A DNA stretch of 63,846 bases, counting the filler, from Kipferlia bialata (Eukaryota), in the NCBI GenBank assembly GCA_003568945.1. It is 4 parts of 4 records of this genome, joined end to end, with 100 filler letters (N's around TTAATTAATTAA, not from the genome) between each part and the next. Parts side by side here need not be neighbours in the genome. Positions count along the whole stretch, not along the records: positions 20,449 to 40,671 come from BDIP01000385.1; 3 more parts are not named here. One strand, 5' to 3'. Positions 14,975 through 40,139 of the stretch are shown here, in pieces. The notes under the pieces are model-generated. The model was not told the origin of the DNA and made no database searches. It worked only from the letters and a program-made list of their open reading frames with translations. The first letter of the stretch is position 1, and each line of letters begins with the position of its first letter. A program made the position numbers and the translations under genes.

Positions 14975-17330
14975 CGAGAATCTATACAGTGTAGTATTCA
15001 TCCTGGACAGGGTGGGGGAGTGTGAGCAGGTGTTGTGTTATTATATCACCATATACCTATATGTATATAATTATATTAATATATATATGTATATGTATAT
15101 ATCTCTATTGTGACAATATACAGTGCAATATGCATCCTGGACAGGGTGGGGGAGTGTGAGCAGGTATGGTAGTTTATATACAGTCAATGACATATGAGTA
15201 TACATAGTATGGTATGTATAGAGAATATGTAGTGTATTATTATCCTGGACATGGAGGGGGGGTGGGGGGTGAACAGGTAGGACTTCTTTGTGTATAGGTC
15301 TCTATGGTATGTTGTATGTACTTCCCTCATGACCTCATTTGTGTTTACCATGTATGTATTTATATAGTAGTGGTATCTCACCCCATAGGCTCTTTATAAT
15401 TGTTTGTAGTGGTCCCTAACTCCCAGGTCCTTGGTGACATATTGAACCTAGATATACCCTCACCCGTATAGTATGTATATACATAAGAGAGTCTAACCCC
15501 CAGGCCCTGTGTGACAGACTGGCCCAGGTGGAGGGGCTGGTGGACTCGAGGTGGCAGCAGGTATACATTGCATATGTAATGAATATGTTGTTTGTATATA
15601 TAGTATAGGAGATGTACTACTAGGCACCTAATTAGTTTACTATACATACTCGTGTTGGGAGCTGGTGTAGAGGGTTTATATTGTATATGTGTATTATTGT
15701 ATATATAGTGGACTTGAGGTGGTAGCAGGCATTGATGTGCGCAGTATAGAAAATGTATGATATGTTTTCACAATCCCGTACCCCCTCACGGTGCAGACAA
15801 GGGATGCCATATATACATTGTATGGCCCTATATATATGTAATACAACTGCACTAGCCTCTATCATATATATATATATACACTCACCCCCAGACCTTGCAG
15901 ACCAGGGATGCCATATATACATAATATATATATATATACATATTGTAGTATATAGTACTATTATTGTATTCACCCCAGACCCTGCAGACCAGGGATGCCA
16001 TGGCCGAGGAGCAGAGGGTGGCAGCCATGGACAGGGAGGCTAGGTGTGTATAGCAATGATAGGTGCATATATACATGGTAGTATATATCTATATATGCAC
16101 ATATGGATTCCTGTAGGAGCAGAGGGTGGCAGCCATGGACAGAGAGGCTAGGTGTGTATAGGATGTACTAGACAACATATATGTATATAATTATATATGC
16201 TATGTATAAGTACATATGTTCATATGCCCATATAAGAAGACAGTGGGAGCCATGGACAGGCTAGGTACCTATTGTGTTTCCCATAGTGTAGATATATGTA
16301 TGTGTATTTGAGTATATGTATATATATATACATATCTTTTCTGATCTTACATCACAACAGGACCCGTATTTATATGTATCAGTATATGTGAGTACATTGT
16401 TTTGTATATACCTTTCTTCTGCTCCTGACCCCCAGGCGTCCCAGGGTGGACAGGTCCTGTGAGGCTCTTCCCCCCTCGCACTTCCCCCCTGTGAGTGTTG
16501 AGACCTCTGTGCAGACAGGCATAGAGGGAGATGGAGAGGGGGGGTTCACTGATGCATCCACAGGGACTGAGGCAGAGGTGGAGGCTATGCCCGTGATCAC
16601 TGTCGATGCGTGTATGTGCACTGACCCCATGCCTCTCCCTATTGTACCTGTTGTCTCTGTGCATGGACCTGCGCCCTCTCCTGAGGTGCAGGCTGTCCCC
16701 ACCCAGGTGACACCCACAGAGGACGAGGGAGAGAGGGAGAGGGACAGAGAGAGGGAGAGAGAGAGACCCGCTGCCAAGGCACAGCAGAGGGAGACAACTG
16801 CTGTCTCCGCCACTGTATCCAGACCCAAGGGTGGCAAGAGAGGGAGGGAGAGAGAGAGGCCTGCAAGAGAGAGTAGTGCCAAGGCCTACCCTGTGGAGTC
16901 AGAGCAGTCTGCCAGCACCTCCACCAGCAGCAACCTCCTCGAGCCCTTCTCCCCCGTGTCCCCCTCCCCCTTCTCCCTCCCTGCACCTGTCCAGCCCCCT
17001 GTCAAGAGGACTGTCCGCAGTGCACGCAGTGTCCGCAGTGTGAGGCGCAGCAGGACCAGGCCCACTCGCACCTTTGCCCTGGACCCTTTACTCACACCCA
17101 CACCCCCTGGGGCTGATGAGTCACTGGCTGCCAAGGGTGGGTCTCTCTCTCTGTTTGGAGGCAAGGAGAGAGAGAGAGAGTCTCTCTCTGTGTCTGACAT
17201 GGCTAGGGTCAGTGCAATGCACCAGAGAAGGGCCGCCGCATCTGTGCAGGGTGTGCCATCTATACTCGAGGAGAGTGATGATCAGATGCTGGACCTGCTC
17301 TGCTCACCTGACAGGCGGTACGGGTCTTGA
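14491..17330 (+). CDS. Hypothetical protein with N-terminal coiled coil and long disordered tail; start uncertain
   Basis: GC-rich exons MVESAVEASLGPVCERLSAL / ERGMATHES...LETIK / DGQISIASRIMSILDRVGECEQ / ALCDRLAQVEGLVDSRWQQ / TLQTRDAMAEEQRVAAMDREAR join the 294-aa terminal ORF that ends at 17330. Confidence 0.6.
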
Positions 17331-17456
17331 AGGGGGTAGGAATAGATAGAGAATAGATATTATATTATGTCAGGAGTCTGTAAATCAGATACAAGTCACA
17401 ACTCCTATATTGAATATATATTGCTTGTCACCCCAAGAAGTGTGTTCACACTCCTC

Positions 17457-19737
17457 TCACATCGATGTGAGCTGCTCCCCCGCCACCTTGATTGCCGTTG
17501 CCATCTGCTGCACCGCACTCTCCACCCCCATGCCCTGGCCCATGTTGACTATCTTCACACTCTCCACAGGCATGTTGCTGTAGATGCCTCCCACAGTCTC
17601 CATCAGCCTCAGCTGGGTGCTCTGGGGGGGTGCCTCCTTCTCAACCTCAAGCTGCCTCCCAAGCAGGGTAAGCTCCTGCTGCCTCTCAGCCTCGGCCTCC
17701 TTGGGGTCAAACGCAGTGTGTATGAGTATATGAATAGTCAATATACAATATTGTTTTCAATGCTTCCTACCTTGAGGTTAAACTCGTCTGCAATGTGGCG
17801 TCTCTTGTGCTCTGCGGCCTGTACCTCCAGGCCCTCTGTCAGCTCCTGCAGGGAGTGCTTCTGCTTGGCAAGGGTGCGCTCACTCTGCAGGCGTGCCTCG
17901 TCCACCAGTCTGTTGTGGGCAAGGAGGTCACGCTCCATGGCAACGGTCTCGTCAGCCTGCACCTGGGGTAAGCAGCGGCATAACTACAAGCGTATGTGAA
18001 AGTTGGAGACAGAAAGACAGACACATACTAGAGAGGGAGACAACTCGGTGTACCTGAGCCATCTCCAACTCCTTGGCCATCTCTAGCAGTAGTGTATATA
18101 TATGTATGCATGTGGACACGAGAGAGAGCAAGACGTCTCTGTATATACTATATCCAGTAATTACCTGGGCCATCTCCAGCTCCTTGGCCATCTCTAACTT
18201 GGCCCTCTCGATCCTCTGTCTCTCCAAGAAGAGCTTCTCCTCCTCCTTCTCGGCCTCAAGCTGCTTTTGCTTCTCGTACACGATCTGCTGGGCATCTGAC
18301 ATGAGAGGAAGTATAAGAGGGTAGAAGAAGTCTACCGCTAGAAGACACATACAAGAATGCCTCCACTATACACTTACTTGTATCAGCCCTTTGCTTGGAG
18401 AGTGCAAGCTCGGACTCCACCCTCTCGGCCTCTAGCACGCTGTCGGTCTCACGCTTGATGCGCTCTGATGTCTGGCGTGTCTCCTGGCGGTATGGGGTCT
18501 GGAGGTTGTTGAAGAGAGAGGAGGACAGCACCCGGACGTCAGTGACCTCGATCGTCTCCAGCCACACACCCCACCCTCCCACCACCGCCTGCATCTCCTC
18601 TCTGATGGCATCTCTCACCAGCTTCCTGTTCTGGATGACCTCCTGGATGGTTAGAACTTCTAAATACGGTATTTAGGTATTTAAAATACCAGAGTAAAGA
18701 ATATATACATTAGATCTAATTAGTATTCAATTATTATACCTGGATGGTGAGGTTGGCCACCTGGTGCCTCACGATAGACTCTGCCATGCGGGCTAGGTTC
18801 TCGTTGGTGGTGGGGTACTCGAAGGTGGTGCGACATAGACCCTGGATGTGCTGGAAGGCCTTGTAGGGGCCGTCATCGTTCCTGAGTCAGAATAGGGTAT
18901 GATGGTGATGGCACAAAGAGAGATAAGATTAGTAACCTCTATCAGTGGTAGTCAATATATATATGAATACAGTATTTCACATACGAATACAGGTATATTA
19001 TATACTATATATACTATATATACATATATAGACTACTATGCGCACCTGCGGATAACCCAAATAAGGAATCCCGAGATCTCAACACCAGAGAACTGCTTGG
19101 TAACCTGCGGTTGGAGGGATTTGTACGGCTACACGGAAGAGTATGTAGTGATACACAGTTACGGAAAGACGAAAGAATATGTTGTAGTGACACATAGTTA
19201 CAGAAGGTCAACTCAATTGTCAATACTAGCAAAGCTAGTCTAGAAATGCAAGACTAGAAGTTCTTGCATCTGAGTCATACATACATACATACATACATAC
19301 ATATACTGTATTCACATATATTGTATATACATGGTACCTGTTGGGCCACAAAGGGCACCTTCTGCAGCACAGTAGGGAACATGACAACCTGTGTCAGACT
19401 AGGGTGGCCACTATAGTATATATAACATTGCCACACACATTGTACTGTAGACAACATTGGCCATATATACCCAATCACCCACCTGCTCCCTTAGCCTGCG
19501 GAAGTGTGCAATACCCACACCTGAGTTCACGAGCTTGCCGTCCTTGACCACAATGCACCACTCGTTCGGCTTGGCCTGCTGTTATGCCATACAATACAAC
19601 TGTATATATGGGTGTATGAGGGGAGGCATGGTGTGTGGTACCTGCATGAAGCGTAGCCATATACCCACACCCAGGGCAACGGCGCTGAAGAGCCCGGCTG
19701 CCACTGCAATGGGCACCGCGTATCCACTGGAAGCCAT
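17457..19737 (-). CDS. SPFH/band-7 (flotillin-like) membrane protein, 9 exons
   Basis: N-terminal TM segment (YAVPIAVAAGLFSAVALGVGIWL), then AKPNEWCIVVKDGK...VEISGFLIW...ESIVRHQVANLTIQEVIQNRKLVRDAIREEM...WGVWLETIEVTDV, which is an SPFH signature. An E/A/K-rich coiled coil follows. Confidence 0.85.
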
Positions 19738-20298
19738 TTGGTTGGTGGAGCGGTGTCTGACTGACTGAGATCAGCGTGACACCGATATATGGCAAAAAAG
19801 GATTGACATTCAAAGGGTTCCCTCCCAGTCACCTTCATGATCTGTTTACTGTATCAGATAACTGGGACTCATAAGCGTCTTACCTCCGTCCACCCTCTAT
19901 AGCGGTCAGACTAGTGAATCTTAGGTACTCGTGGATGTGCAGAAGAGACCCCTGACCTCAATACTGTCACTTAACATATCCCTTTCTAATGATATATGGG
20001 GAAGGCCACTCTATTCTTGCTCACATATATCTCACAAGTTAGTATTTCGTTGATTACCATTAGTCAATTATGTGAAGAATGGCGATATACTAGAGAATGA
20101 CATCTCTGCACACTGTCTTTGCGCTGACAGGTACTCTCTCTCTCTCTCTCTTGCTGTCTCCCCCGCTCTCTAACTCTCCTTCCTTCTTTCTCCCTCTCAC
20201 AGACCAGCTTTGTGCTGAGAGGAACGCTCTCTCTCTCTCTCTCTCTCTCTCCTTCCTTCTTTCCACCTCTCCCACACTGGCTCTGCGCTGACATATAT

Positions 20299-20348
<50 letters not shown>

Positions 20349-20448
20349 NNNNNNNNNNNNNNNNNNNNNNNNNNNNNNNNNNNNNNNNNNNNTTAATTAA
20401 TTAANNNNNNNNNNNNNNNNNNNNNNNNNNNNNNNNNNNNNNNNNNNN
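20349..20448. other. Artificial contig linker (N-run, TTAATTAATTAA, N-run)
   Basis: The 12-mer gives stop codons in all six frames and is flanked by Ns. A poly-C tract precedes it. Confidence 0.95.
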
Positions 20449-20537: not shown

Positions 20538-23500
20538 TTAGTGGACATTGGCTAGCTGTCCTCTCTGACCATGATGTCCATATGTATGACCTTACAGACA
20601 CCCAGTGGATGGAGTCTCCCTACCCCACACAGGTACAGTCTTATGGATATACATAATACAATTGGTGGGGGCAGTTGTATATTGTATTTTCTGTCTCGAT
20701 TCACCTGGTGATCTCACCCCTGTCCCTCCCCCTCCCGCACCCCTTGTACGAGACCTGGGACAGCATTGAGATGGACTCTCCCTCTCTAGCCATGGACTGT
20801 GTCTCTGGGGTACCCCGTCTGGCACTAGTCACTCGACATGACTTCCTAGTCTACTCTCTCTCCCCCTCCTTAGAGTGGAGACTAGAGCAGACACTACCTC
20901 TAGACAGTGAGTGGAGTCATGGACACCAAGACAGAGTGCAGGTATTAGCATATAGTACAATAACCCCCCCCCCCCCCTATTCCTCCTATAGGTATTTTAT
21001 ATGCAGCTCCCTCACACCCAGGTATCTCTGTATGGCGACTCTCTGACCCTGTCATCAGGGGGCACTCTCCTCTGGTACTCTCTAGATACCAGCAGAGACA
21101 CCCTCCTACCCTCTGACAGTGTCACCCTTCCTCCCACTCTCTCTGTGTCGTCAATGGTATCGTGTGAGGACGGAGTGTGGGTGAGGGGTGATACCCTCGA
21201 TGCTACTGGAGAGCAGTTGCCTGTGGTGTCACTGTACACTCACCCTGTCTCTCTCCCCTGGAGAGAGAGAGAGAGAGACCTGGAGGTAGAGGATGAGATC
21301 TACTACTCCAAGACGCTGTCTTCCAGGCCTGGGTATGCATCCAATGCCCCACCCAGTGTCCAGAAAACCAATGCAGTGACTGCCTCAGCGGCCACCGCAA
21401 CACCTGCTTCTACCTCTAAGAGTGTGGTATCCTCTTCACCCCTTCCTTCTACCCCCCGCTCCCCCTTCCCCCCTCCTGTGATGGGTATGGGTATGGATAT
21501 GGGTGTGAAGGATGCCACCCCCGACCCAGTATTCACACTAGACACCGGCACTGACCCCACCTCCACCCTCTCCTCCTCTGCCACCCCCGCAGCCTATACT
21601 GGTACCAGTATAGCAACACAGGCTGAGTGGATGGTGGTAGGGGCAGAGGGAGAGGCAGCCGCTATTGGTATGGTGTATGTGTATGAGAGACAGGATGACC
21701 TCTCCTGGGCTCTCTCCCAGACCCTCTCTCCACCTGTGGGTACTGTACCCACTACTGTGGATGGTACACCCACCCTCTCCTATGGCCATACAGTGTCTCT
21801 TTCCCCCACCCTCGTCCTAGCCATCAGTGCCCCCCACTTGTCTGTAGATGGCACAGACTCTGTCGGTGGGGTGTACATATACACACTGGTGGGTGGGTCT
21901 TGGGCGTTGGATACCACCCTCCTACCCCCTGTATCTGTCGCTGGTACCATGTTTGGCTCCGATGTTGCGCTCTCTCCCTGGCAGGCTGTGGTGGCTGGTG
22001 TCTCCAGTGTATACCACAGCGCCTATTCTGCTGGTATATGGGGTGAGGTGACCACTGTCCCTGAGGCGGTGGCCGGTGTATACGCCCTAGGGGTGGTACG
22101 TGTGGGAGCTGCCGGTCACTGGGTATCTATCATGACCCACTCCCATCTCTTCCTCTACCACACCGAGGAGTATGGGTGGGCGGATGTACCGACCCAGACC
22201 ATTGAGCACGGATATGATACTGATGATGTCACTGTCACACTGAGTGTACATAGTGAGAGTGCCAGCCTCGCTCTCTCTGCATATGATGCTGGGAATGCAT
22301 GTGTGGATGTGTACTCTCTGTCTGAGTCCACTTGGGTGTTTCAGACCACCATCACTGGGGTACAGGGTTCCACACTCTCCCTCTATGCTAGCACCCTAGC
22401 CATAGGGTCAGAGGCTGGTGTGGAGGTATACTCCAATGACTTCTCATCTGGGTGGGTGAGTACACTATCCCTCACACCTGACCTAAGTGGTGGTGCATGT
22501 GATGTGGCACTCTCTCCATATGGTCTCTTTGTTGGTGCTCCTGCTATTGAGTCAGGTGGCGGTGGAGTGTACTGGTTCTCAGCTGCTGTACCCACACCCA
22601 CACCATCCTCCGCCGTAGAGACGCTTCTAGAGGAGCTTGAGGTTGTACCTTCCCTACTCCAGCCTAGTGTGACTGCCAGTGCTCACGCTGGGCATGCTGT
22701 ATCCTCTAGTGCAGACTGGATAGCTGTGGGCGCCCCTAATGACGCTAGTGACGAGGGCCGTGTGTACATGTACCAGACCGTCCCAGACACTGGTGTGCAT
22801 ACACTCCACAGCACCCTCTCCCCCATTGGTACCCCAGTTGCATCAGGGGGTGAGATACTCTTTGGCCAGTCTGTCTCACTCTCTGGTGACAGACTGGCTG
22901 TGTCTGCTCCCAAGGTGCAAGGGTCTGGTGTCGACGGAGTGGGTGTGGTGTACATGTACCACTACAATGTGGACACTTGGGAGGAGACCGCCACTCTGAT
23001 ACCCCCTGTCAGCACCCTTGACCACTCATTCGGTACTAGCATCGGCCTGAATGGTGATCACCTAGTTGTTACGGCAGCGGATACTGTGTATAGTGTCAGG
23101 TACACTGAAGGGTCGGGGTGGGGGACTGTGACGCCTGTGTCAGAGCCTGTTGTTGGTGCATTCGCTGGCCTTACCTCCCAGATCTCTCTCGATGGAGGCT
23201 GGGCAGCTATAGTCACATCCGACCTATTGGTTCTGTATGACCTGTCTCTCTCAGAGTGGCACCTGCAGACACCCTACCAGACCATTTCCCATGGATATGC
23301 CACATCAAAGCTAGGTGTGGATCTAGACATGGAGTCGGGTCGATGTGCTATCAGTGTCTACGATACTACTCTCCAGTGTGTGGATGTGTATGGCTACGTT
23401 GACCCCACCTGGGTTCTAGAACAACACTTGACGGGAGTAGTGGGGACCAGCATATCTATGCATGGGGCTCTCCTTGCTATCGCCTCCGATATCAGTGTAG

Positions 23501-26500
23501 AGGTGTATGCCCATGACTCTACCCTTGGTATCTGGGGACACACCACCTCCATTGCACCTGCTGAGAGTACACAGATAGCATCTGTGGATATCTCTGACGG
23601 AGGTCTTGTTGTTGGCGACACCCTGCTTACTAACGCTGCTGCAGCAGAGGCTGGTGGGGTGTATTCTATCCCAATCACCTCTGTGAGCCTAGGCTATCTC
23701 ACACTACCCGGGTCCCCCAGTGCCTCCCTATTAGAGCAACTGGCTATTTCCCCCACACTCCTTCAGCCCTCCTGTGCTGCTGACGCCCATGTAGGTGCTA
23801 CAGTAGCCACCCATGGACACTGGTTAGTGATTGGAGCCCCTCAGGAATCAGCTCTGAGGGGACGGGTATATGTCTACAAGCTCCAGTCTAGTACTGGTGA
23901 CTGGCTACCTTTCCAGATTATTGATCCCCCTGTTTCATCCTTAGCGTCGCTTTCTGGTAGTCTAGAGTTGTCATTTGGACTCTCAGTGGCTGTTTATGGT
24001 GACAGGGTTGCTATTGGCGCCGAGGGTGAGAGGCTAGACGACCTCGACCATGTCGGTACTGTCTACACCTACACACTCTCTGGGGCATCGTTTGAGCTTG
24101 AGACCAAGTTCAGCCAGACAGTGAGTGCGGCTGGGTCCTACTTTGGAAAGAGTGTGGCCTTAGGCGATACAGACGTAGTCATCGGAGCAGTTGGCGATGT
24201 GTATACCTCCCGACTCTCTGAGGGAGTCTGGGGCTCCCTTCAGGAAGTGGTAGATCCCACTGGGACCTCTTTCACTTCTGATGAGTTCTCTCTTGTGGTA
24301 GACGAAGGCTGGTTGGCGGTACTCACCCGGAACGATCTCTACCTGTACAAGACTAGTACAGACGCCTGGTACTCTGCGCCTACCCAGACTGTCACCCATG
24401 CCCTCGACTCCACCACCCTCTGTCTTACCCTGGACAGTGGGAGTGGGTGGGGCCGACTCGCTTTGGGTGAGACAACCGCCTCCACTGTCGATGTGTATGT
24501 CTATGACTATCCAGACTGTGACTCTGACGCTGAGTGGGCACTGGAGCAGCACCTCTCAGCTATGAGTGTGGAGCATGTGGCTATCTATGGGTCCAGCCTC
24601 ATTCTATCCTCTGTAGGAGGGACAGCTGTCTACCTGCTAGATACAGTATGGACTGCCGGTCCTTCTCTCACACCTGCCCTCAATGGGGAGTTGTCCTCCC
24701 TCACCGTCTCTGAGCATGGGGTGTTCCTCGGGTCCTCTGCATTAGAGTCAGGCGGCATTGCCGGGGCTGGGGGTATAGTGGTGTACTCAGCCACAATGCC
24801 GTCCCTTCCGTTTGAGCCTTGCCTCTCACTTACAATGCGTGCCCCTGGAATCACTGTTGTGGGAGACTCATATGTCATAGAGGCCTTCCCAGTCGACAAG
24901 TGCGACAGCATTGTCTCTGGTACGAGTGTGTTCATTACACTGTCAGACTCCACTGGTGACATTCTAGAGACATGGTCAGTGGATGACAATGCAGTAGATG
25001 GGGTGTACTCTGTGACACATACCCTAGACTCCGTAGGAGAGTACTCTCTCTCCATCTTTGCGGAGGACCTGTCTGTGTCGCAGTCCCTCACAGTGTTAGA
25101 GGAGGCACCTGGGGTTGTATACCACTACCCGCCTATTGACAGCTACACACTGTCTGATTATAGTTACGACGAAGAGTACCCACTGAAAGCCTCTGACAGC
25201 AACACCTTCGTTTGCGAACATGATTATGGAGTGTTTGCTGTTTTTCACAGAGACAGTCACAATGTCGAGAGCCGGTGGCAGTATGTTCAAGATATTGAGT
25301 TGCCCTCTGAGTCTCGTAACTCTGCGTATCATAACTACTTGTCTCTCGCAGTCGACGGAGACTGGATAGCTGTTGGTGACTGGCAACTCAACAGTTATAG
25401 TGGCGTTGTTTACCTCTTCAAGTTCAGTGATGGAGAGTGGGGGTATCATGAAACCCTGCTGCCCCCAACAGCTGTGTCGTACCTGTACTTTGGGTATGCT
25501 GTTACCATCGGTTCAGACCTTATTATGGTGACAGCTAACGACTATGTATTCGCAGTTGAGTACTCCCAAGAGACTGGTACATGGGGATCTGTATTGGGAC
25601 TTGTGAGAGAGTCATCAGACCAGTTTTACAAATACACACAGATCCAAACTGACGTCACTGACAACTGGGTATTCGTGCTAACTCCGAGATACTACTATTG
25701 GGATGCCAACCTCCTGTATGTATACGACCGCACATCTCCGGACTGGGTGTCGGCTCCCCTTCAGGTAGTCTCTCTTTCCAATTCATCTAAGAGCGACAAC
25801 TCTGGGACGCTAGCAGCTAGCCGCAGTCATGATAGAGTCGTAATTGGAGTATTCTATAACTACGATTCGTATCCCTATGGGCTGGACATGTACAGCGTAG
25901 CGTACAATGGGGAACAATGGGTTGAGGAGGACAGCATTACCAGCGATTATGAGAAGCGCGGCAACACAGACCCAATGTCTACCGTGGCTTCCAACGGTGA
26001 TATTGTAGTAATTCGCCACTTTGAGGTGACATATGTCCAGATATTCAACGACGCTACGTCTGTTTGGGACACAAGGACCATTGGGAGGCCGAGTTCTGAT
26101 GACTTGGGGACATTTGCAACTCTGAGTTTGTGGGACAACGTCGAAGTGGTTGGAGAGTACATTTACCTGTACCCACAGGACGAAGTGTATGTGTATAGGG
26201 CGGCAGACCTATTTGTGTCTGAGGAGTGGCCTCTGGTGTCAGAGCATGTGGATCTTAAGATGACCCATACACAACCCAGTACGGGTTCCTTGACTCTATT
26301 CGATGCATACGGATATAAAGTCACTTCCAAAGTGGCTAGTCAACCAGAGTGTACACACGGCCTAGCATCTTCCTCTTGGGATAGTGAGGAATGTGTGTCT
26401 GCCCTCTCGTGGTCCTTGGACATGACATACGATGGTATTCAGAGGATGGAAGTGCGTGTAGGTGGAGAGCTTTTGGCAACTCGCACCTTGTATGTGTCCA

Positions 26501-29500
26501 CACTCTCCCTCTTCTGGGCTGCATCAGCTGAGTTTTCAGCTGCATATTCTGATGTGTGTGAGCGGCAGACATTCGACGTTGATGTAAGAAACAACGTTGG
26601 AGGACTGATGCCTGTGGATTACGGTGCTTCCATCACTGCAGGGTTTGACAGTGATGTCTTAGTCTCACCAACCTGGGTATCTAGTTCCAAGTCATACCGG
26701 TTCTCTGTACACGCACCTGCCACTGGTGGTCAGCACACTTTGAAGTGCTACATCGACGGAGAGGTACCCATGACTGCACTACACATATATACATATATAC
26801 ATTCTCCTGACACTTATCCCAGGTGCTAGCCACTGAGACGGTCACCATCAGTCGCACTACCAGTGAGGCCTTCTCTATCATAGAGGTTGCTGCGACGGTG
26901 CCCCCCAACACCCCCTTCACCATAGTGGCATCCCCGAGGGATAGCTGTGACGCTGTGATTGGGGGCCGTACTGTAACTCTCACTGTCAAGAACAGTAACT
27001 TAGGTGTGTCAGAGACCGCAGCCCTCGAGGATAGTGGCGGTGACCCAATGTACGCCCATACATTGTCGCTTGCCATTGAGGGAATCTACACGATTACAAT
27101 GACTGTCGATGGTGTTACCAAGACAAACACTGTCAATGTTGCTTCAGCCAGTATCGATATTGGGGGCACGTCACGGTACATCTCCTCTCAGTACTCAGTA
27201 CTATCTGGTACTCCTACCACACTAGGAGAGGCATTTACGGTGACTCTGGTCCTTAGAGATTCCGCCGATGTCCTTGTGAGATCCAATGCATACCCACTCT
27301 TTGGGTTTGACACTGAGATTCTTGTGGCTGGCACGTGGAGTTCCTACTATGACCAGTACACATACTCTGGTGTGGTGTGTGGACTATCTCTGGACACCTC
27401 AGCGTTCCAAGTAGAAGTGGGTGGGAGCATCTTGCTCTCTGTCCCCATTACTCTGACTCAGAGTGTCAGCCAGGCTGAGTCTGAGATTGATGCGGTAGAC
27501 ACTGTCCTCCCTGGAGCATCAGTCACCTACACACTCCTCCCCAGGGATGCATGTCGTGTAGTCATGGGTGGACTCACTCTGTCATTCACGATATCCTCGT
27601 CTGACGGGTCTATTCTGGTTGATGAATCCGTCACTGATGTTTCAGTGGCACTTGAGTACACACATACTGTTGTGGTACCGGTTGAGGGTGCATACACAGC
27701 TACAATGACCTCTGGGGACGTCGCTATACAAGACACCCTCTACGCATCTCCCCACGCGATTATGAGGGACGGAAAGTACCGATACCTCTCTCCATCTCAG
27801 TCCACCCTCGTTGGGATCCCCACCTACATATGCTCCTACGACATCGTCCTAACCCTCGTCGATGTCACTGGGACCGCCATTCCTGTCAACCTCTATCCCA
27901 AGCTGGGGTTCGACTCCTCTCTTGGACTTGCAACATGGGATGAGACGTCACAGAACTACACACTCTCCGGCAGTGTATGTGATGGCCATGCAAGTGCGAC
28001 CACCTTCTCAGTTGAGGTTGTAGGTGTGGTGATCTTCAGCGAGGCCGTTTCGCTGGCAAGAGATATGTCAGAGAGCGAGTCAGTGCTAGAGCTGCTCGAC
28101 TTCTGCACCCCAGGGACTGTAGTCCCTATCACTATGCAACCCAACGATGGGTGTGGGACAGTCTTCACTGGCCTGGACGTGACTCTCACTGTCCTCAACC
28201 CAGATGGATCAGAGTACTCGACTGAGATTGTCACAGACAGTGGGGGAGGAGTGTACAGCACATCTACAACACCTACATCTGAGGGAGAGTACATTGTCAG
28301 TATGTCCACTGGAGATTTGACAAAGAGTCACACGCTCTCTGTTGCAGTCCTCTCTGTCTTCCTAGGGGGGAGCTACACCCACGTCTCTGCAACCTACTCC
28401 TCTGTCGCTGGATTGCCCTCTTCTGCGGGCACATTTATCGCCTACCTCTCCCTACGCGATGTCACAGGTGCACTTATCACCCAGAACCTTGCACCGGTGA
28501 TGGGGTGGGAGGGGTATACCAGGACTGGTGCATGGGACCAGGACAGTAGTACGTACTCTGGTATGAGCAGGGTGTGCTCTCTCGGACCCCAGACCTACAA
28601 GGCCCGGGTTGGATCAGTGGAGATCCTCTCCATAGACACCACCATCCTGGAGTATGGGTATCTGTCACAGAGTCTTAGCCAGGTGACTGTCACACCAGCC
28701 GCAAGTGTAGGCGGTACTATAACCGTGACAGTGACACCACAGGATGACTGCGGAATAGCTGTGGCTGGCAAGGTGGTGGAGTTGTCGATAGTGTCAGGAC
28801 CCTCCCCTATGGTTGTGACCCAGCACAGGACAACAGAGGTAGATGGGGTATACACATACTCATACAGTCCCACTGAGGAGGGCACCTACGCTGTCAGTGC
28901 ATATGTTGGCAACACCCAACTTGAGGCCACGATGAGAGGGTCGGTGTCTCTGTACGAAGTGATAGATGTAGACGGTGCCACACAGTATGTGTCCTCCAAC
29001 TCTGCACTGGAGAGTGTTCCTGCATCCGTGTCTTCAGCAGAGACAGTGACCGGCGTAGTTACTCTTAAGGACTACAATGGAAACATCATCGACAAGGAGT
29101 GTCCTGTCACTGTAAAGTGGAGAGGAGGCGATGCTGGGACAGTGCAGTGGCAGAGTGACAGTAAGACTTACACAGTGTCACTCACTGCTCCCTCTTCCAT
29201 GGCCCTTGGTGCTGACCTCTGGGTTGATGTCTCAGTTGATGGCAATCCCCTACTGTCAGCCCCTGTGACTCTTGCCCTGTCATTCAGTCCCTCTGGAGGT
29301 GGAAGCATTGCAGTATCAAGTGTAGCTGGCCTCACCATTCCTGATCTGACAACCTGTGAGACAGTCAGTGTCACATTCCAGTTGGTGGATTCTGACTCTA
29401 CTGCCGTGACAGCTGATCTCTCTGACTCTCTTACTGCCGGCTGGGACGGTGTCTTTGATGCAACACCAAGCTTTGATGGCACCAATACCTACTCCGTCTG

Positions 29501-32500
29501 GATCACGGCTCCATCTACGGTAGGAGAGCATGAGTACTCTGTTCGTATTGGATCAGAGGTCGTGTCAACTGAGACTGTGTCTGTCTCCCAGAGTGTGTCT
29601 AGTGTCACCCTATCCCTGGTTCCTGAGGTGTTTGTGGTGGGAGACGCCTTTAGTATGGTAGTGGAACCCATTGATGAGTGTGGGGCAACAGTACTAGGCC
29701 AGCGTGTCTCCCTTAGGGTGACAAGTGGGTCTCTGGTGATACACGAAGCTGTTGTCTCAGATGTGGATAGTGTATACTCAGACTCCTACACGCTGGATAC
29801 TGAGGGTGTGTACACTGTATTCATGGTGGTTGGTGACGTTGAGATTACCGAGCAGATCACTGTGTCAACAGTAAGTGTCACTGCGTGTGACACTGTGTTC
29901 GACGTTTCATCCACTCTTGGTAGAGTCACAGGCCTACCTGAGTACTATGGAGAAGACTTCAGTGCTGGTGTGACTCTCTATGCTGTCAATGGCTCTGTAA
30001 TTGACTGTGATATCAGTCCAGTTATTGTGTGGTCATGTGGCGATGTACAGACTGTATGGAGTCCAGAGCTGTCACAGTACATAGTCACCGGTAGTGCCGC
30101 ACTAACTGGGGACTGCACTCTCACAGTGAGCCTTGACTCTCACACACTGGTGGCCAAGACCGTAACTCCCCTTACTGACACCCATCTGTCTCAGGGCCAG
30201 TCCTATCTGTCGGTTACTCCCCAAGTGTCAGTGGGTGAGGATGTCACGGTCTCTGTGTACCCCAAGAACCAGTATGGGATGGGGTTGACTGGCAGACTGA
30301 TCTCTGTGTCAATCCTGGCCGGCCCCTCTCCTGTTGTAATGTACCGGGGTGTGACAACCGAGGGTAACCCTGGAGAGTATACATACACTTACACACCAAC
30401 GTCAGAGGGAACCTACCGAATCAGTGGATACGTCGGCAATACCCTTCTCGAGTCCTCAGCTGATGGGAGTGTCGCTCTCTACACGGTTGCGGACTCTGGG
30501 ACAACTTACTATGTATCCACACTTTCCTCACTTAGTGGGTTGCCACAGAGAGTGTCACTTGACGAGGAAGTGGCTGGCACTCTGGTCCTTAGGGATGGTG
30601 CTGGTGCACTAGTCTCTGCCCAGCTGGATGTGAGTGTGGCATGGGATGACGGCACTCCTGGCATGGCTGTGTGGGACGGTGTGTCCACATACGCAATTAC
30701 CCTCACATCACCTACCACTATTGCGGGTGTTGGTACCCGAAGAGTAGTGGTCAGTGTTGCTACTCAACCACTAATGGAAGTTGATGTAGAAGTTGCTCTT
30801 GCCGCTGCCTCTGAAGGGGGTGCAGAAGTACACGTTACTGCCATGGCAGGGCTATTCATTGGACAGCTTCACACCTGTGAGACTGTCACACTGTCTCTGC
30901 AGCTAGTGGATAGTGGTGATGTCCCTATTACATCTGACATGAGTAGTGACCTATCCTGCGGGTGGGACGGTGCGAGAGACCTAGCACCAGAGTGGAATGG
31001 CGTTAGTATGTACACGCTTGATGTCACTGCGTCCTCCAGTGTTGGCACGTACACCGTATCATGCTACCTTGGGGCTGTATCCTTAGCTACTGAGAGTGTG
31101 TCTGTGTACCAGATACCATCTCTTGACACTAGTGTCGAGGTACCCACCAGCGTACAGGCAGGGACTGACTTCGACATACTAGTCCTCCCCGTTGATGCAT
31201 GTGGAGCACCTGTATCAGCGGTTGTGGAGGTGGAGATACTGACAGAGAGAGGCACTCTCTTGGAGCATGCCATACCTCCACCAACATCCCTTGGTAGATA
31301 CACCCACCCCACAACTATTGAGGCAGAGGGCACCTTCTCAGTGAGCGTCACAGTTGGTACACTATCCTTCACACGTGTGCTTCGTGTAGCTGCTGCACAG
31401 GTTACAGTCGCTGGTGTTGACTGCTACCTCGCAGCTTCTCTCACCACCGTGTCTGGGCTGCCTGTATACAGAGACGCACCCTTCACTGTCGATGTCACTG
31501 TCTATGACGTATCTGGGGAGAAGGTCAGTTATGATCTCTCGCCCTTAATCAACTGGACGTGTGGCACACTGGGTGTGACATGGAGAGGAAGTGTCAAGCA
31601 GTACTATGTGACAGGCAACGCTGGTGACAAAGCCTCCTGCATATTCAGTGTATCTGTGGATTCCATGGAACTGTACTCTGAGGTAGTTACACTCCAGGTT
31701 GACAGCTACCTGTCTCAGAGCCAATCTTCTATAGCTGCCGTTTCCCAAGTGGCTGTGGGTGATGACTTACTGATTGAGGTGTACCTCCGTAACCAGTATG
31801 GGAGTATACTCTCCATCCCCCAGAGCGTCACTGTGTCAGTGCTCTGTGGCCCTTCCCCCCTCACTATGGAGAAGGGGGTTGCAACTGCAGTAGCTGGAGG
31901 CACATACCAGTATACCACGTTGTTCCAGACGGAAGGTACCTACACGATCACAGCCAACGTAGGTGCCTCACAGATAGAGGACACAGTGGCTGGGAGTGTG
32001 GCGAAGTACAGACTTGATGTCGATGGCATCCCCCACTTCGTCTCTTCCAACTCGGTTCTCTCGGGACTTCCCAGCACTCTGGAGATTGGCGCTTCTGCTA
32101 CTGGCAGTCTCTCTCTCAGAGACTCTGCTGGCGTGACATCCACCACTAGGTTACCACTCACTATGTCGTGGGACGATGGCACTCCTATCAATGTCACGTG
32201 GTCTCCTGCAACCCACTCCTACCGTGTGCCAGTTGACAGTCCATCTACAATGGACGGTGGGGGTATCAGATCCCTAGATGCTTACCTTGACGGACGTCTT
32301 CTGCTGACCTACTACGTGGCAGTTGCAATGAAGGTTACGCTCGAGGTCCCCGACCTATCTACACGATCACCTGGCACTCCCAAGAGTGTGTCTGTGGATC
32401 TGTGGATTGGGGGAGTCAGTGGCCTAGATGCATATCCTTCAATGGGAACGTGTGAGAACGTGTCATTCTCTCTCAATGTACTAGATGACACAGAGACACC

Positions 32501-34880
32501 TATCCAGTATGACCTTACATCATACCTCACTATGGGATGGGATGGAGCCAAGGACATGGTACTGCGATTTGACCCTGTCTCTCACTCTTATTCATGTGAC
32601 ACTGTCAGTCCCTCTGACAGTGGTGCCCACTCCTTAGAGGTGTACCTAGAGGGTGTGTCTATTGGACATGAAAGTGTGGGTGTCAGCCAGGTCAGCGTGT
32701 CCGACCTGTCTACAGTGACAGTGCCCTCTACTGTCACACCCAATGAGGCATTTGCAGTGACTGTCATGCCTCTTGATGCCTGTCTAGCCCATGTGACAGG
32801 ACTCACTGTCGATGTACTTGTTAGAGACAGTGCAGGTCAGTCAGTGGCCCATGCCCCTGCTGTTGAGGGTATGGGTGACTACACACTGAGTGCAACACTC
32901 CCTGAGCCTGGTACATACTCGGTTATTGTCAAGTATGGATCCACATCTGTCATGACTTCTGTTACAGTGGCTGCCCCTACAGTCGAGCCAGAGCCAGAGT
33001 CCATCGGGTCTATCCGTACTATGATGTATGGGGTGATTGTGTTCTCCCTTGCCATGGGGTGTCTGTCTGTGTACAGCATCACTAGAGGTGACCACAAGAC
33101 GCTAGAGCCTTCGCGTAGCTACGACAAGAGCGAGGAAAGAGGCATCCACGTCCCTAGTCTCAAGCGCCAGGCCTCAGTCAGAGGGAGCCTACGCACCTTG
33201 CCCCAAGTGGCGGCCACTGACATGCGTCTCAACACACCCTATGGGATGTCGTCCGTGCCCCTCTCTGACACTCTCGTACCCGTCTATGTAGACACCCTTG
33301 GTAGTGCCGCCAGGTTGCTGCCTGTGGTGGTCTCCAGTGAGGAAGAGAGAGTGCAGTTAGAGAGAGATGTGGCCACTCTACAGCTGATGGGGTCTGAGTA
33401 CCACCTTCCCCTGATAGGCTATGCCGCACCTGGGTTCCTATTGGCAGACCAGGACTGGGCCGACACCCCATGTGCCACCCCACAGGTCTCGCCTAGGACA
33501 CAGACACAGAAGGATCCCGCTGTACCATCCACACTGGTGGATGCTGTCCTCAACGCATGTAGTACTGTTGTGCCACCTAGACTGTCCAACGTAGCGGCAC
33601 TGGTCTTTGCCGATATCGGAGGTGAGCTGCTGTCAGACTATCTCAGAACAGCACGCTACACAGACCAGCGTCTAGACCTGTGCCTCCAGTTAGCCAGGGC
33701 TGCGCGCCACATACAATCAGGACAGTTCCTTACACATGGCCTATCAGAGAGCAGTATTCTCGTGGACAAGGGTGGATCGATAGGGGTGTGCACCCACATC
33801 CTGGGCCACTCTCTTGATCCAGGGTCGATTCTCAAGAGAGGCCCGACTAGGGGACTGTTTGATGCCAATCCACCAGTCACCACCACACTCTCGGACGTTA
33901 CTACTCTCCTTGACACCATCTGTCCCACTGATCTTGCCACTGTCATTGCGGGTCTCTGCATGACTCTTCGTATCCATGGGGTGACAACTGACTCTGTTGA
34001 GAGAGCACTAGCTACTGCTGTCAGTGAGATTGTGACTAAGTGTGCTGATATGCCCCTCTGCTCTCGCTCTGTGGCCCAAGACTCTGTGCATCGAGCAGTC
34101 ACTGTCACGTTCCCCTTCTGTGGGGCATCCATACCCACTGGTAACAGCTGGGACTATCTCGCTGGACTGCTATTCCCAGGGGCCCCTCGGGGCCATGTAT
34201 CCAAGCTTCGCACCCGCTACTCCCAGTATGTTCTACTCGACATTCCAGCTACACGACTTCGGGGATACAAGGCGGCACTACGCCGATCCTCTCTCTCCTT
34301 TGCCCCTGGCCTGCCACTACCTACCCAGGAGTGTGTTGGAAAGATATGCTCTAGGCACAGTCGGGTGAACCCTGGCTCCGTACCCTCTGCTGTATCCAAC
34401 AGGATCATTGCATATGTGGGCACAACAGTATCCCAGGTGGCTGGGAAGAGACTGCCCCTAGTCCACGCCGGACCTCTAGGTACTGGTGTGTACATGACAA
34501 CATCGCTTAAGGCGGCCCTAGCTACTGCAGACAGCAAGGCCCAGAGAGACGGGTCTCAGGGTGTTGTACTATGCTGCGAGGCCATTCTAGGCAGGGTGGC
34601 TCCTATAGCGAGTGCCGAGAGTGGGAGTGCATACCAGTTGGTGGTGAGGGGCAGGCCTGCCACTGAGGCCGAGATCACTGTTTTGCACTCTGTGATGATG
34701 GAGAGAGGTAGCATGAAGACTGGGTTCGACGTACTCTTGGTCAAGGAGAGCAGTGTTCTACTCTTTGCTGCACTGACCCTGAAGGCCCAGGGTACGGGAC
34801 CTAGAGAGACTGTACCCAACACTCCTACCACTGATGGAGTCTCAGTGCCATTCTGCCCTGGGTCACCCTCAGAGCAGTGA
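20538..34880 (+). CDS. Giant single-pass receptor/adhesin-like protein (>4,700 aa, 5'-truncated): FG-GAP beta-propellers, Ig/filamin-like repeats, TM helix, pseudokinase, degenerate PARP-like ART domain
   Basis: ORFs 21001-26829 and 26823-34880 are joined by a 59-nt GT-AG intron (26764-26822; GE|VLATE), with upstream introns ending at 21021. FG-GAP-like motifs: WIAVGAP..GRVYMY, FGQSVSLSGDRLAVSAP, FGKSVAL. Repeats of V.P.D.CG...G.YT...PT.EG.Y.V. TM segment MMYGVIVFSLAMGCLSVYSIT at about 33021-33083. Confidence 0.85.
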
Positions 34881-35060: not shown

Positions 35061-38000
35061 CTAGTACCCCCCGTGCTCCTTGATGAGGTGCCTGTACACT
35101 GGTCCCTGTGTAGAGCTCACATACCCGCACTTCCAGCACCAGTGCTTGCCACAGTGGCAGTGCATGTGGTTGCACCCCGCTGTCTTGTTCACAGCCACCC
35201 CACACCCAGGGCAGGTGTGGACAGTATCGGACAGTTCTCTGAAGCTGGTCAGTGACTGGTTGAGTCTCTCCACCGCCACAGCCTCGGCCCTTCTTCCATC
35301 GCCAATGGTGATACCAACGGCGTCACAGCTGTCCTGGGGTGAGAAGGTGTACCGAAACTATATATATTAAAGTTGCATACCTGAAATGCCAGGTCGAGAT
35401 TGGCCAGACAGCAGTCAGGCACAGTGACACTGCTAGAGCACTGGTGGGCAGAGGGGAGGGCCAGACGAGGGGAGTTCTCAGCAAGCACCAAGGTGATGGG
35501 CCTCTGGGGTAGCATTGAAGACCCAGTGGCGAAGACTAGGAGGAGTCTAAGCAGGGTGTCGCTCTCTAGCCCTATCTGGGCATCCACGAAGGCGTCAAAG
35601 GCCTGGCGCAGCACCGAGCTCTCAGTGACAAATGCCACCTTGTACTGACTAGCACTGATAGGAGCCACAGAGGCTGAGGCCTTGACAAACTGGTCTAGGC
35701 TGAGGGCACTGACAGTAGACGCCCACTCTGCGTGTAGAGAGCAGTAGCCCCTGTGGATCTCTCTTCCAGCCACCATCATAAGACGGACATACGAGGTCTC
35801 AAACAGAGTGGCAAACTCGTCGCTGTTGTGCTTGGAGAGCACCTTGTCAGAGTCGGTCACACCCGGAATGGAGGTGAAGGGTACCGGATGGAGGTTGGCG
35901 AGTGTACGCAGGAGTGACCGGCGCTGGATAGGGAAGGTAGATGCAAAGACCCTAGACACAGCAGCCTCGTCCTTGAGGAAGGTGTCTATCCCTCCGTGCA
36001 TAGCTGCATACACAACCATGCCAAACAGGCCGTGGGGGAGGGGGCCGTCCAGAAGCTGAAAGGCCAGGAAGCGACCGAGTGCAGCGTAGTGCATGCGCAG
36101 ATCCTTGACGTACTCACTGTCCCTGATGCATGTGGAGTCCTGCATAAGGGTGCAGCCACATATAGAGGGGACAAGCTGGTACTCTCCTAGTCCAGCACGC
36201 TCCAGCAGAGGCACGTTGCACTTCCCCACAGGCTGCTGTAGGCAGCATACCAGCCGCATAAGTGGGCTCTGCTCCTCACTCTCTGGGTCTTCGGTACTCA
36301 GTCTGCAGTATCCCTCTATGGAAGCCGTGTCTCCAGGGTTGAAGTGGGAGACGAGAGACTCGGGAGAGCAAGGGACACTCTCTGCCTGAGCCTTCACTCC
36401 CTGCACCTGCACCCATGTCTGCCCCGCCAGAGCCTCCAGCCTCTGCACTGCGTCAGGACTGCTAGAGGCAGTGACGGCTGACTGAGCGAACAGGCCTGCC
36501 GCAGCCATGTGGTAGGCCGAGATTCTGTTCTTCTTGCTGCCTAAGCACCTGCGCACAGCACTGACCTCTCTTGCTGTCAGGTCTGGGCAGGCAAACTCCC
36601 TGTAGCGAGCCTGGCCGAAACCCCTATCAGGGCCACTGAAGACGTCCTCAACGGTGCGGCCGAAGGAGTAAACGTCTGAGAGAGAGTCAAAACACCCATC
36701 ACTGGCACTTTCGCTGTCGATATAGTGCATGGTGCCGCAGATGGTGCGTCTGAGGGTGGTGACGTAGTCCTGGCTGTTCTTGGAGATGTCAAAGTCACCT
36801 AGTGCAACAGAAGAGACCACGCCCTCGCTGTGCTTGAGGAACACGTTCTGGGGCTTGATGTCCCTGTGTACTACACGGTGGCCCTCAAGGACAGCCATGG
36901 CCAGCAGTAACTGCCTGACTATGTGGCGTCTGGTCTCGATTGGTGCCTCGGGATAGGCGCGTAGGTACTGCATGAGGTTGCAGTCGTACTTCTCTGTCAC
37001 GAGGTAGCACTTCAGCCCCTCCACGACAAGGCCCATGAACCGTACAATCAGCACGTCACGCACAGTCTGGTACACAGAGACCTCCCGTCTAGCATGCTCC
37101 ACATCTGTGATGTCGTCAAGGTTGTACTCCTTGAGGACAACAGGGAGGTTGGACTCGGGGTAGACACCCTCATACATGGGAAGCCTACCAGCCGAGGGGA
37201 ACTCAACTGGCTTGAACTGGTGGAAGGGGATATCCAGGCAGGTGCCGCAGAAGGGGGCTAGGCGGGTTGTGTCAAGGGGGTGTCTGAGGTATCTTGTCCT
37301 CAGTACCTGTGGTAAGAGTGTCTCACTATACCTAGACTGCACATGCACTACTCAATCGTACCTCAGCTGCCTCAGGGTGCTGGCTGTGACGCTGCAGCCT
37401 GGTCATGAGGCCACGTCCCCTAGTCATAGTCTCCATAATGGTGTCTCTCTCATTCTGCAGCACCCTGCTCTCAGCTTCGAGGGTATCCCGTGCCCTTTGG
37501 GACCTGGCCCTGCGGATACGCACTGCGTTGAGCTCAAGGCTCTCCTCAACCTCATCAAGCCTACAAGTGAGAGGCTACTTAACAGTGTAGGCGCAGAAGT
37601 ATATGCAATAATTGTATATGGGATACATCGTTACGACCAGCTCTACTGCGCCCGATGAGGTATAACAATGCAGTTAACCGGTACCTATCAAGTGAGATCT
37701 GGGGAAGAGCCTTCACACCCATAATGACCTCCTTCATATCCTTCTCCTCCTCTCCTCTCTGCAGCAGTCTCTGGTGGAGGTCTTGCACCCTGCTGGCAAT
37801 AGCAGTGGCACCAGCAACACTAGCTAGATCAACACCCGCTAGGGCGTCGACACACTTCTGGAGATCCTCCTGGCGAGGCATCAGAACTTCCACAGCGGTG
37901 TATGCGTCAGTGACAGAGCAGTTGTACTTGACAACGGTGCACACACGTGTGCGGACATCCAGAGACATGGCAGCAGTGGGTGCAGGGGGTATGATGGGTA

Positions 38001-40139
38001 GCAGTGCGCATACAGAGGTCACTGCTTGAAGCCACTCCTGGACACGGCCGAGGGCCTGGGTGGGGTCGACCTTGACTCCCTCTAGCTGAGCACAGCTGTT
38101 GTGGAAGGTCTTGGAGAGAGGGGTGAAGGAAGTTAGCAGAGGGGTCACGTCGCCACTGGCGAGACTGTCAATGGGGTGCTCTTCCATGAAGCACTTGAGG
38201 CTCTCAGCCGCACCAAGGAGAGCCTTGACCGAAGGGGTGAACACAGCTAGCTGGTCTAGTGTATAACCCACACCGTCTGTGTTGAGAGCGGAGACACTTG
38301 CCAGAGTGGCAGAAGCCCTCTCGGTGTCGAAGGGAGAGAAGGCATTGAACCTAGCCTCATAGTCGCTGATCTTCTCCATGAGAGAGTCTCTCTCAGCGGT
38401 GACGGCACTGAGTCTGTGTGTTTCCTGCTCAAGCACTGTGACTCTCTTCTTGGTCTCAGATAGCTGAGGTGAGTAACCTGTTAAAAATACTGTAACAATA
38501 CAGTCGTAGTTGGTCTCACTGTGTGACTCACACTATGAATAGTGAGAGGCCATAGACAATATTCACCTGGGTACCGGTGCTGGCCAGGTTCCTCTCTAGT
38601 GACTGTATCAGCTGAACAGTCCTCGGCAGAAGCTGGGAGTACGTAGTAGTAGATCCTGCTCTCAGGCTCCGGTCCAGGTCTAGGAGCTCCTGTTGCAGCT
38701 GGTCTCTCGCTCTCTGGTCCCTCCTCTTTCTATCTGCCTTGCGCCTCTCTGCCTGTGAGGGCCTCTCACGGAGCTGATCTTGGAGACGTACATCTGGTGG
38801 CACAGGATCCTCGTCTCCCACACCACCCATGTAGACAGGCACCACGTGCTGCACTGGGTTCGTGTCTGCATCTGTAACTGGTGTCTCCTCTACAACTGCC
38901 TTCTCGGGTGTGACCACCGTAGACGTCTCTCCCCCACCAACCACTGTCACGGGTCTTCCCACCATGAGACTCCTCTCACTGACCACATACACAGTGCTAT
39001 CGTTGAGAACACATGCACTGCCGGAGTCAAAGGGGACTGGCAGTGGGTCCCCCTTCCACCACTCCCGTGTCTGGGTGTTGTACATGTGGACCTGTCTACC
39101 ATGATGGGTACCCCCCATCACATGGATGTCAGTACCGAGACACACAGCGGCGGAAGCATGAGCCTGTGGTCAAATGTGAAATCAGTAATTGTGACATGAC
39201 ACGTCACTGTAGACACACTGACTCAGTGTGACACTGAGTTCGAAACGTTTCACTGTTGAAGGTGTCTCAAGAGAGAAACCACTGACAAGGAGTAGTTGTG
39301 TACAGCAGCTGTAGAGAGTTCTACACGGTCCATGAAGTGGAGGTTCTTGTCATATACTGATAAAGTAGTACTAGGTGTATATAGTACTAAGCATCCGGAT
39401 ATATGTTGTATACATATGTGCACACACGTATATGTATATTGAGTAGAAATACACCCACCTTGAATGGAAGAGGGGTCTCCTGGCTCCAGCTGGTGCCATC
39501 AAACGTCAGGTGCATGTCCTGACAAACACCCCCCATCACATGAGCAGCGTCCCCTACAGTCACTACACAAGCACTCTCGAAGCCAACAGGAGCATCAGAC
39601 ACACGACGCCACACAGATGTGTCAGGATTGAACTCCCAGCAGTCCCGGAGGGCCGGGGACCTCTTGCTGGAGTATCCGCCAGCCACGTATAGCATGCCAC
39701 CGAGGGTAAAGGCACTGTGGTTCATGCGCTGCTTGGGGCGCTGGCCTGAAGACAGGGATATCCACTCCTTGCTCTGGATGGTGTAGCGGAAGAGAGTGTT
39801 GAGAGTCCCATGCTTCTTGGTGCGTCCCCCAAAGACAAACACATAGTCACCAATGCGTGTAGCGGTGGCGCCCTGGGTACCGGAGAGTACCTTGCAGCCC
39901 TTGCCGGCAGATGGGTCTGCTATCAGGGCCCCGGCCGCAACCTCAGTGAGCAGCACTGTCTTGGTCAGCGGGTTGCGCTGATGGTCCAAGCCATTGTTTA
40001 CCCCAACAACCATGACAGGGCCGCTGTAGCCGTTATCTGTCAAGGGACCCAGGGGAGCCAGGCATGGCCGCCCCTCACCCTTACACTCGAGGTGGGTCTG
40101 GACGGTATAGGCCAGTCCGACTGACACCGCCATAGACAT
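35061..40139 (-). CDS. Kelch repeats / coiled coil / Ser/Thr kinase / HECT-like E3 / RBR-type RING2 fusion, 6 exons, 1,484 aa
   Basis: Exons 40139-39459, 39163-38567, 38463-37685, 37560-37362, 37306-35381 and 35333-35061 are all GT-AG and total 4,455 nt in frame. Kelch motifs YVFVFGG, LYVAGG, IHVMGG. Kinase motifs VVLKEY, HRDIKPQN, GDFD. HECT-like motifs LGRFLA and LLVFATGSS.LP...LPSAHQC. RING2 motif CPGC...KTAGCNHMHCHCGKHWCWKC. Confidence 0.85.

Follow-up and report, generated by a model that had tools for sequence, protein, structure and literature searches.

This analysis concerns KIPB_002363, a gene of the fornicate protist Kipferlia bialata in a stretch of DNA of 63,846 nucleotides, filler included (the window), from assembly GCA_003568945.1. 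K. bialata is a free-living, bacterivorous organism (PMC5874029; here and below, statements on cited publications refer to the parts of their text that were available). A cluster look-up identified the locus as the gene for GCA62259.1 (hypothetical protein, partial, 4630 aa; P0001 below). KIPB_002363 is without functional annotation and its 5' end is cut off by the end of its source contig, which has 20,223 bases and corresponds exactly to positions 20449-40671, between two gaps of N. No signal peptide is visible in P0001 because the N-terminus was lost at the contig end (20449). An earlier note, made from the sequence alone, had read the locus as coding for a giant integrin-alpha-like surface receptor with a cytoplasmic pseudokinase and a second dead, PARP-like enzyme domain. 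The product is not an artefact but a lineage-specific variant of the receptor pseudokinases, carrying a probable second pseudoenzyme.

Gene model and paralogs of KIPB_002363

Two open reading frames (ORFs) were found on the plus strand, at 20992-26829 (1945 aa) and 26811-34880 (2689 aa). The segment 26764-26822 measures 59 nt, has GT..AG ends and is in phase 0 in both frames, and the GenBank model joins the ORFs at this same junction. Furthermore, a profile of immunoglobulin (Ig)-like repeats, built from the paralog P0002 only, crosses the join without a gap, scoring 61.7 bits on the joined sequence versus 44.6 on the end of the first ORF and 6.7 on the start of the second; profile positions 9-79 match the former and 78-104 the latter. 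Removal of the 59-nt intron thus completes one Ig repeat, and a reading as two separate genes is ruled out since the join falls within that single repeat. At a depth of 2.2 and with 84 letters on its shorter side, one contig of sequencing run X1 also omits these 59 nt, with GT..AG ends; that X1 represents RNA is a guess, no listed run being on record as RNA. The earlier note had taken the two huge ORFs for one gene with a 59-nt intron, and the phase, the GenBank join, the gapless repeat and the X1 contig all agree with it. It had also made its reading depend on the splicing of this segment, which the low-depth X1 contig, of guessed RNA status, indeed skips.

A decaying pseudogene is ruled out by the open frame of 13.9 kb and the conserved tail. 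The region 21022-34880 has one intron in these 13.9 kb, versus ~34 expected from the genome average of 2.45 introns per kb (PMC5874029). This scarcity suggests that the gene grew as units free of introns were duplicated internally, or that it is of retro- or horizontal origin. At the 5' side, a propeller-coding exon at ~20753-20941 was probably missed by the GenBank model.

A phmmer search with the 598-aa tail over 1.84 billion representatives yielded five matches, namely four K. bialata proteins (query included) and P0004, which was dropped as an unrelated PPC/Fn3-repeat protein matching via its repeat. P0002 (KIPB_000757, 4404 aa) and P0003 (KIPB_005172, partial, 794 aa) share with P0001 the layout of Ig repeats, transmembrane (TM) helix and tail as well as the motif losses described below; P0005 and P0006 are fragments. 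The cluster look-up names all five as K. bialata hypothetical proteins, four of them being phmmer matches and the fifth an additional member of a cluster. Word-indexed homolog searches gave no match, but P0003, though present in the query alignment, was missed too, and these blanks carry no weight. Pattern scans found no relatives in viral, prokaryote-genome and metagenome contigs; the locus L012 from these scans was rejected as a short spurious frame matching the seed peptide only. Searches with tblastn against phages and plasmids gave chance-level matches only. The family is so far confined to one species, K. bialata. Deeper X1 contigs match the start of propeller 1 (21587-21642) at 90% or above and then diverge from the window, a hint that other closely related and more abundant paralogs carry this propeller.

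Ectodomain and membrane helix

Iterated repeat profiles resolve the ectodomain of P0001 into one partial and four full FG-GAP propellers (~335 aa each) and 23 Ig-like repeats of ~100 aa, one of them between propellers and 22 in tandem. With repeat profiles, 2 propellers and 27 Ig repeats were found in P0002. The Pfam family FG-GAP_2 matches P0001 with E 6e-29, and in the PDB the propeller profile matches integrin alpha chains best (E 0.004-0.2, integrin alpha-M being on top with E 0.004). Matches in the stalk are to Filamin, YtkA, Invasin_D3, MG2, Big_1 and BatD. The several propeller blocks noticed earlier thus number four full and one partial; the Ig-like repeats are present as well, but their count of 23 falls short of the 'dozens' then claimed. 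The stalk (26239-32993) displays a higher-order period of about five repeats (~508 aa; for example, repeats start at P0001 residues 2565, 3073 and 3581), and a PxDxC motif is present in many of its Ig repeats.

In all three paralogs one TM helix is predicted, separating the last Ig repeat from the tail. The single helix expected from the sequence is thereby borne out by prediction and a type I topology is supported, with a predicted cytoplasmic tail of 598 aa in P0001. The positive-inside bias past the helix is clearer in P0002 and P0003 (7 K/R each), and P0002 has an N-terminal hydrophobic segment.

Integrin alpha is defined by a cation motif in the propeller blades and by KxGFFxR (bioRxiv 10.1101/2020.04.29.069435). 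The cation motif D/E-h-D/N-x-D/N-G-h-x-D/E has no strict and no loose match in P0001 and P0002, KxGFFxR has none in any of the three paralogs, and integrin leg families are not among the Pfam matches of P0001. Together with the four-plus propellers and the 598-aa tail, this rules out membership of the integrin alpha family; the term integrin-alpha-like of the earlier note remains valid for the type of FG-GAP blade only. P0001 shares FG-GAP blades, an Ig-like stalk and one TM helix with integrin alpha, including the amoebozoan ITGA (bioRxiv 10.1101/2020.04.29.069435). However, integrin alpha has one head, three leg domains and a short tail, while P0001 has four-plus propellers, 23 filamin/invasin-type Ig repeats and an enzyme-like tail of 598 aa.

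The cytoplasmic tail and its conservation

A kinase fold in the first half of the tail is supported by concordant comparisons of sequences and models. With a profile of the three paralogs, all of the best 60 of 199 PDB matches are kinases, GCN2 being on top (E 0.0084). Using an alignment-based AlphaFold model, kinases make up 45/45 of the Foldseek matches listed (best E 1.4e-3) and kinase chains 50/50 of the VIA-align matches listed, with the JAK2 pseudokinase on top (Z 8.5, root mean square deviation 3.2, 89 aligned); a BFVD fold search returned weak matches with kinases on top. This model has a mean predicted local distance difference test (pLDDT) of 35.7, and ~50-60 over the first 80 residues. 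Fold searches with a single-sequence AlphaFold model gave only generic helical bundles. In the ESM atlas, nine of the ten clusters listed for the kinase region carry a kinase Pfam and the tenth is named kinase (best score 0.88, a lead only). The whole tail gave no kinase match in Pfam; the sole Pfam match of the trimmed kinase core is PK_Tyr_Ser-Thr (E 0.099), and a single-sequence PDB search gave BTK (E 0.12). Pfam HD_4 (E 0.03-0.08) and NCBIfam matches were treated as noise.

In the alignment with BTK, THG stands in place of HRD, Ser in place of the catalytic-loop Asn and THI in place of DFG; the sequence THGLSESSILV begins at 33732. The beta3 segment, assigned by inspection, is without Lys in all three paralogs. 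Pseudokinases are defined by the loss of at least one of the VAIK Lys, HRD Asp and DFG Asp (PMC13519141). All three are lost here, and the domain is therefore a pseudokinase by the standard definition (PMC13519141). The eroded motifs and missing DFG reported in the earlier note recur in all three paralogs. The kinase-like fold that it placed at ~33290-34020 is supported as to fold, but starts earlier, at ~33198.

The C-terminal segment probably has an ART fold, as judged from sequence and language-model evidence. Scores of 0.94-0.95 with PARP clusters were obtained in the ESM atlas, where 10/10 named matches belong to the PARP family or clan. PARP is also the sole Pfam match of the trimmed ART core (E 0.31; 24,736 families), and PARP4 is the sole PDB match for 156 aa (E 1.5) and takes the top two of four places for 77 aa (E 0.34). 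AYVGT is located at 34410 and GPLGTGVYMT at 34470; in the PARP4 alignment GTGVYMT corresponds to GSGIYFS and VVLCCEAILGRV to LLICDVALGKC. The position of the triad His, equated with the HGS/HGT strand by motif and spacing, reads AY[VI]GT in the three paralogs, in which the Gly after it is kept. The first Tyr of the triad is invariant among them (GVYM aligning with GIYF of PARP4), and the second Tyr is replaced by Thr in the PARP4 alignment. The last strand, with the Glu region, is outside all match alignments (KESSVLL in P0001, QEERVLL in P0002; P0003 ends before it). The PARP/ART-like segment without NAD-binding His, as described earlier, can thus be retained as probable: the motifs quoted are present, the weak PARP matches agree and the His position is Val or Ile. 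Fold searches with the two AlphaFold models, both of low confidence, did not return an ART structure. The ART-like (A2) profile had no match in three phage genomes, and phage PARP-like ORFs reached at most 1.6 bits in hidden Markov model (HMM) scoring.

Identity between P0001 and P0002 is highest in the ART core (55%), followed by both kinase blocks (46%), the Ig stalk (37%; 41% over its last five repeats) and the linkers (19-29%). In the ART core, 37 of 113 columns are invariant in all three paralogs (with Arg, Tyr, Gly, Thr, Thr-Thr-Ser, Cys, Glu and Asp). The kinase blocks have 16 of 78 and 26 of 139 such columns, the helical linker 8 of 83 and the insert 1 of 21. Since the motif losses are common to the paralogs, they are older than the paralog split, after which the domains were retained. 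Conservation of the enzyme-like domains above the level of the stalk argues for a function, non-catalytic or non-canonical, and against decay; this selection argument is based on protein identity among two or three sequences, not on dN/dS. The features of the gene are collected in Table 1.

Table 1 Exons and predicted domains of KIPB_002363 (positions in the window)
Feature	Position	Strand	Remarks
First exon of GenBank model; part of truncated propeller	20540..20632	+	True 5' end missing (contig end or N gap 20349-20448)
Candidate additional exon of 63 codons in the same frame, propeller-like	20753..20941	+	Putative; omitted by GenBank model; acceptor GAG atypical
Large exon, from end of partial propeller through Ser/Thr/Pro linker and four propellers to first Ig repeats	21022..26763	+	ORF and repeat profiles
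FG-GAP propeller block 1, ~331 aa	21613..22605	+	Pfam FG-GAP_2 E 4e-5; repeat HMM
FG-GAP propeller block 2	22702..23694	+	FG-GAP_2 E 1e-9; weak integrin alpha-M PDB match, E 0.027
FG-GAP propeller block 3	23806..24810	+	FG-GAP_2 E 3e-12
Single Ig-like repeat between propellers 3 and 4	24832..25119	+	Repeat profile
FG-GAP propeller block 4, most divergent	25204..26220	+	FG-GAP_2 E 0.011; repeat profile
Stalk, 22 tandem Ig-like repeats of ~100 aa, Filamin/YtkA/Invasin_D3/MG2/Big_1-like	26239..32993	+	Pfam and repeat profiles
59-nt GT..AG phase-0 intron within Ig repeat	26764..26822	+	Frames, X1 contig, repeat profile
Predicted single TM helix	33018..33083	+	Acidic before; 5 K/R and 5 D/E after
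Pseudokinase: N-lobe, beta4-beta5 insert, alphaE, catalytic loop (HRD to THG, Asn to Ser), DFG to THI, no beta3 Lys	33198..33977	+	C-lobe end uncertain
Predicted helical linker, poorly conserved	33978..34226	+	Model; 23% identity to P0002
Probable PARP-like ART domain, core 34398-34778	34227..34778	+	His position Val/Ile/Ile; first Tyr kept; second Tyr lost

Interpretation and neighbouring genes

We propose, with a probability of roughly 55%, that KIPB_002363 encodes a giant single-pass receptor or adhesin in which the propellers bind an outside ligand and the resulting clustering is read out through a pseudokinase acting as a switch and an ART fold acting as a docking surface. If an Ig domain measures ~4 nm, the stalk would be roughly 80-90 nm long, and it may hold the propellers beyond the cell coat. 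Binding of the propellers to prey bacteria, substrate or other cells would then lead to receptor clustering. The pseudokinase may work as a switch, by conformation or oligomerisation, and cytoskeletal or signalling partners may dock onto the ART-like domain. In view of the missing catalytic residues, signalling would probably proceed by partner recruitment rather than by catalysis. We infer all steps of this mechanism past the anatomy.

Several results weigh against this proposal. No kinase or ART score is significant when taken singly, the two AlphaFold models are of poor quality (mean pLDDT 34.6 and 35.7) and the structural kinase match is mainly to the N-lobe (model residues 2-150). An hhalign comparison with two PARP-like proteins of phages did not reach significance (18/100 shuffles scored as high), and in pairwise tests only 2/6 phage ART-like ORFs beat shuffles: an Aeh1 ORF against P0001 (2/500 as high) and phage G L007 against P0002 (0/500), the other 4/6 references being null. 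Evidence of expression consists of the one low-depth contig from run X1, guessed to be RNA. Finally, the many invariant polar residues in the ART core are unexpected for a pure scaffold.

Such residues would fit an ART-like domain that is not dead but serves as a divergent output using or binding NAD+/ADP-ribose, under allosteric control of the pseudokinase, in the manner of receptor guanylyl cyclases or RNase L. Indeed, the ART core is the most conserved region, it retains both the first Tyr and the Gly that follows the His position, and in known cases pseudokinases regulate adjacent enzymes (PMC13519141). This possibility is nevertheless considered unlikely, as the His position is aliphatic in all three paralogs, Thr takes the place of the second Tyr in the PARP4 alignment and His-replaced PARPs such as PARP9 are inactive (PMC2964712). 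Equally doubtful is its most far-reaching form, a new receptor class of free-living fornicates comprising a prey- or surface-sensing antenna of 4,500 aa, a pseudokinase switch and a re-engineered, His-less ART output engaged in NAD+/ADP-ribose chemistry or binding. If true, this would be an ART equivalent of the receptor guanylyl cyclases, occurring in a lineage with parasitic relatives that have lost PARPs.

An absence of the ART fold would leave a receptor pseudokinase with an unrelated alpha/beta domain. The ART E-values, all 0.3-1.5, would allow this, as would the negative hhalign result with phage PARPs and the lack of an ART structure from either model. However, PARP came first by three methods (Pfam HMM, PDB sequences and ESM atlas), the order and spacing of the motifs fit, and the models are too poor to probe the ART fold; such an unrelated domain is considered improbable. 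It is also improbable that the protein is mainly a structural surface-coat protein or adhesin whose tail anchors it to the cortex without relaying a signal. The huge, repetitive ectodomain does resemble bacterial adhesin repeats (Invasin_D3, Big_1, YtkA), and no catalytic motif is kept, but two enzyme-derived domains (~450 aa in total) that are conserved above the stalk are more than anchors usually need.

The favoured reading, a receptor signalling through two pseudoenzymes, has partial parallels in known systems. Receptor guanylyl cyclases and RNase L / IRE1 consist of a sensor, in some cases a TM helix, a kinase-homology domain and a C-terminal enzyme fold. The layout of P0001 is similar, but its output domain is probably an ART, not a cyclase or KEN RNase, and is apparently degraded too. 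The receptor pseudokinases HER3, PTK7, ROR1/2 and EphB6/EphA10 are likewise single-pass proteins with a catalytically deficient kinase and presumed scaffold or allosteric signalling (PMC13519141). Compared to these HER3-type proteins, P0001 is far more eroded, with Gly loop, Lys, HRD, Asn and DFG all changed, and it adds an ART-like domain and a 4,000-aa FG-GAP/Ig ectodomain, in a fornicate protist. Inactive PARPs such as PARP9 and plant RCD1/SRO (PMC2964712; PMC4245714) have a PARP-like core with a degraded H-Y-E triad, as P0001 has, but are soluble macro/WWE/RST proteins, unlike the membrane-spanning P0001. PARPs bearing a TM helix (PARP16, a sponge protein, and others from Rhizaria and rice) are not described with a kinase or large ectodomain (PMC2964712; PMC4245714).

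The available text of PARP surveys that mention TM-bearing or inactive PARPs contains no kinase-PARP fusion. A full-text literature search, covering papers outside subscription, found no description of this architecture, nor is it described in the available parts of PMC5874029, PMC2964712, PMC4245714, PMC3417536, PMC9503650, bioRxiv 10.1101/2020.04.29.069435 and PMC13519141. Within this literature, the earlier statement that the architecture is not known from described proteins therefore stands. In the K. bialata genome paper the surface-protein repertoire is described as poorer than that of Giardia or Spironucleus, and its main text, as available, has no mention of kinases, integrins or PARP (PMC5874029). 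Its three supplementary files, to the same extent, gave no match for the gene numbers, FG-GAP, PARP or integrin. This family of 4,400-4,600-aa receptors was therefore missed there. The findings add a receptor-pseudokinase architecture with a probable second pseudoenzyme, apparently under selection, and place probable PARP-like domains in Fornicata, whereas diplomonads were reported to be without PARPs (PMC2964712). For an anaerobic bacterivore, the protein is a concrete candidate sensor of prey or surfaces; it also offers a test case for what dead enzymes in tandem do.

The tail-to-tail neighbour of KIPB_002363, on the minus strand at 35071-40200, is a multi-exon gene with Kelch repeats, a coiled coil, a kinase, a HECT-like region and a C-terminal Cys/His motif, which we take to be RBR RING2/IBR-like. 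Its kinase looks intact (HRDIKPQN, DFD; Pfam E 9e-24) and the HECT-like region is weak (E 0.005); judged by sequence, the gene would encode an unusual kinase-HECT-RING fusion. No similarity was detectable between the tail of KIPB_002363 and this neighbouring active kinase. Among the genes listed, those just upstream of the N gap 20349-20448 are on the minus strand. Intron-rich coding exons at 17300-19750, also on the minus strand and just upstream of the gap, have a coiled-coil and, by eye, an SPFH/flotillin-like appearance.

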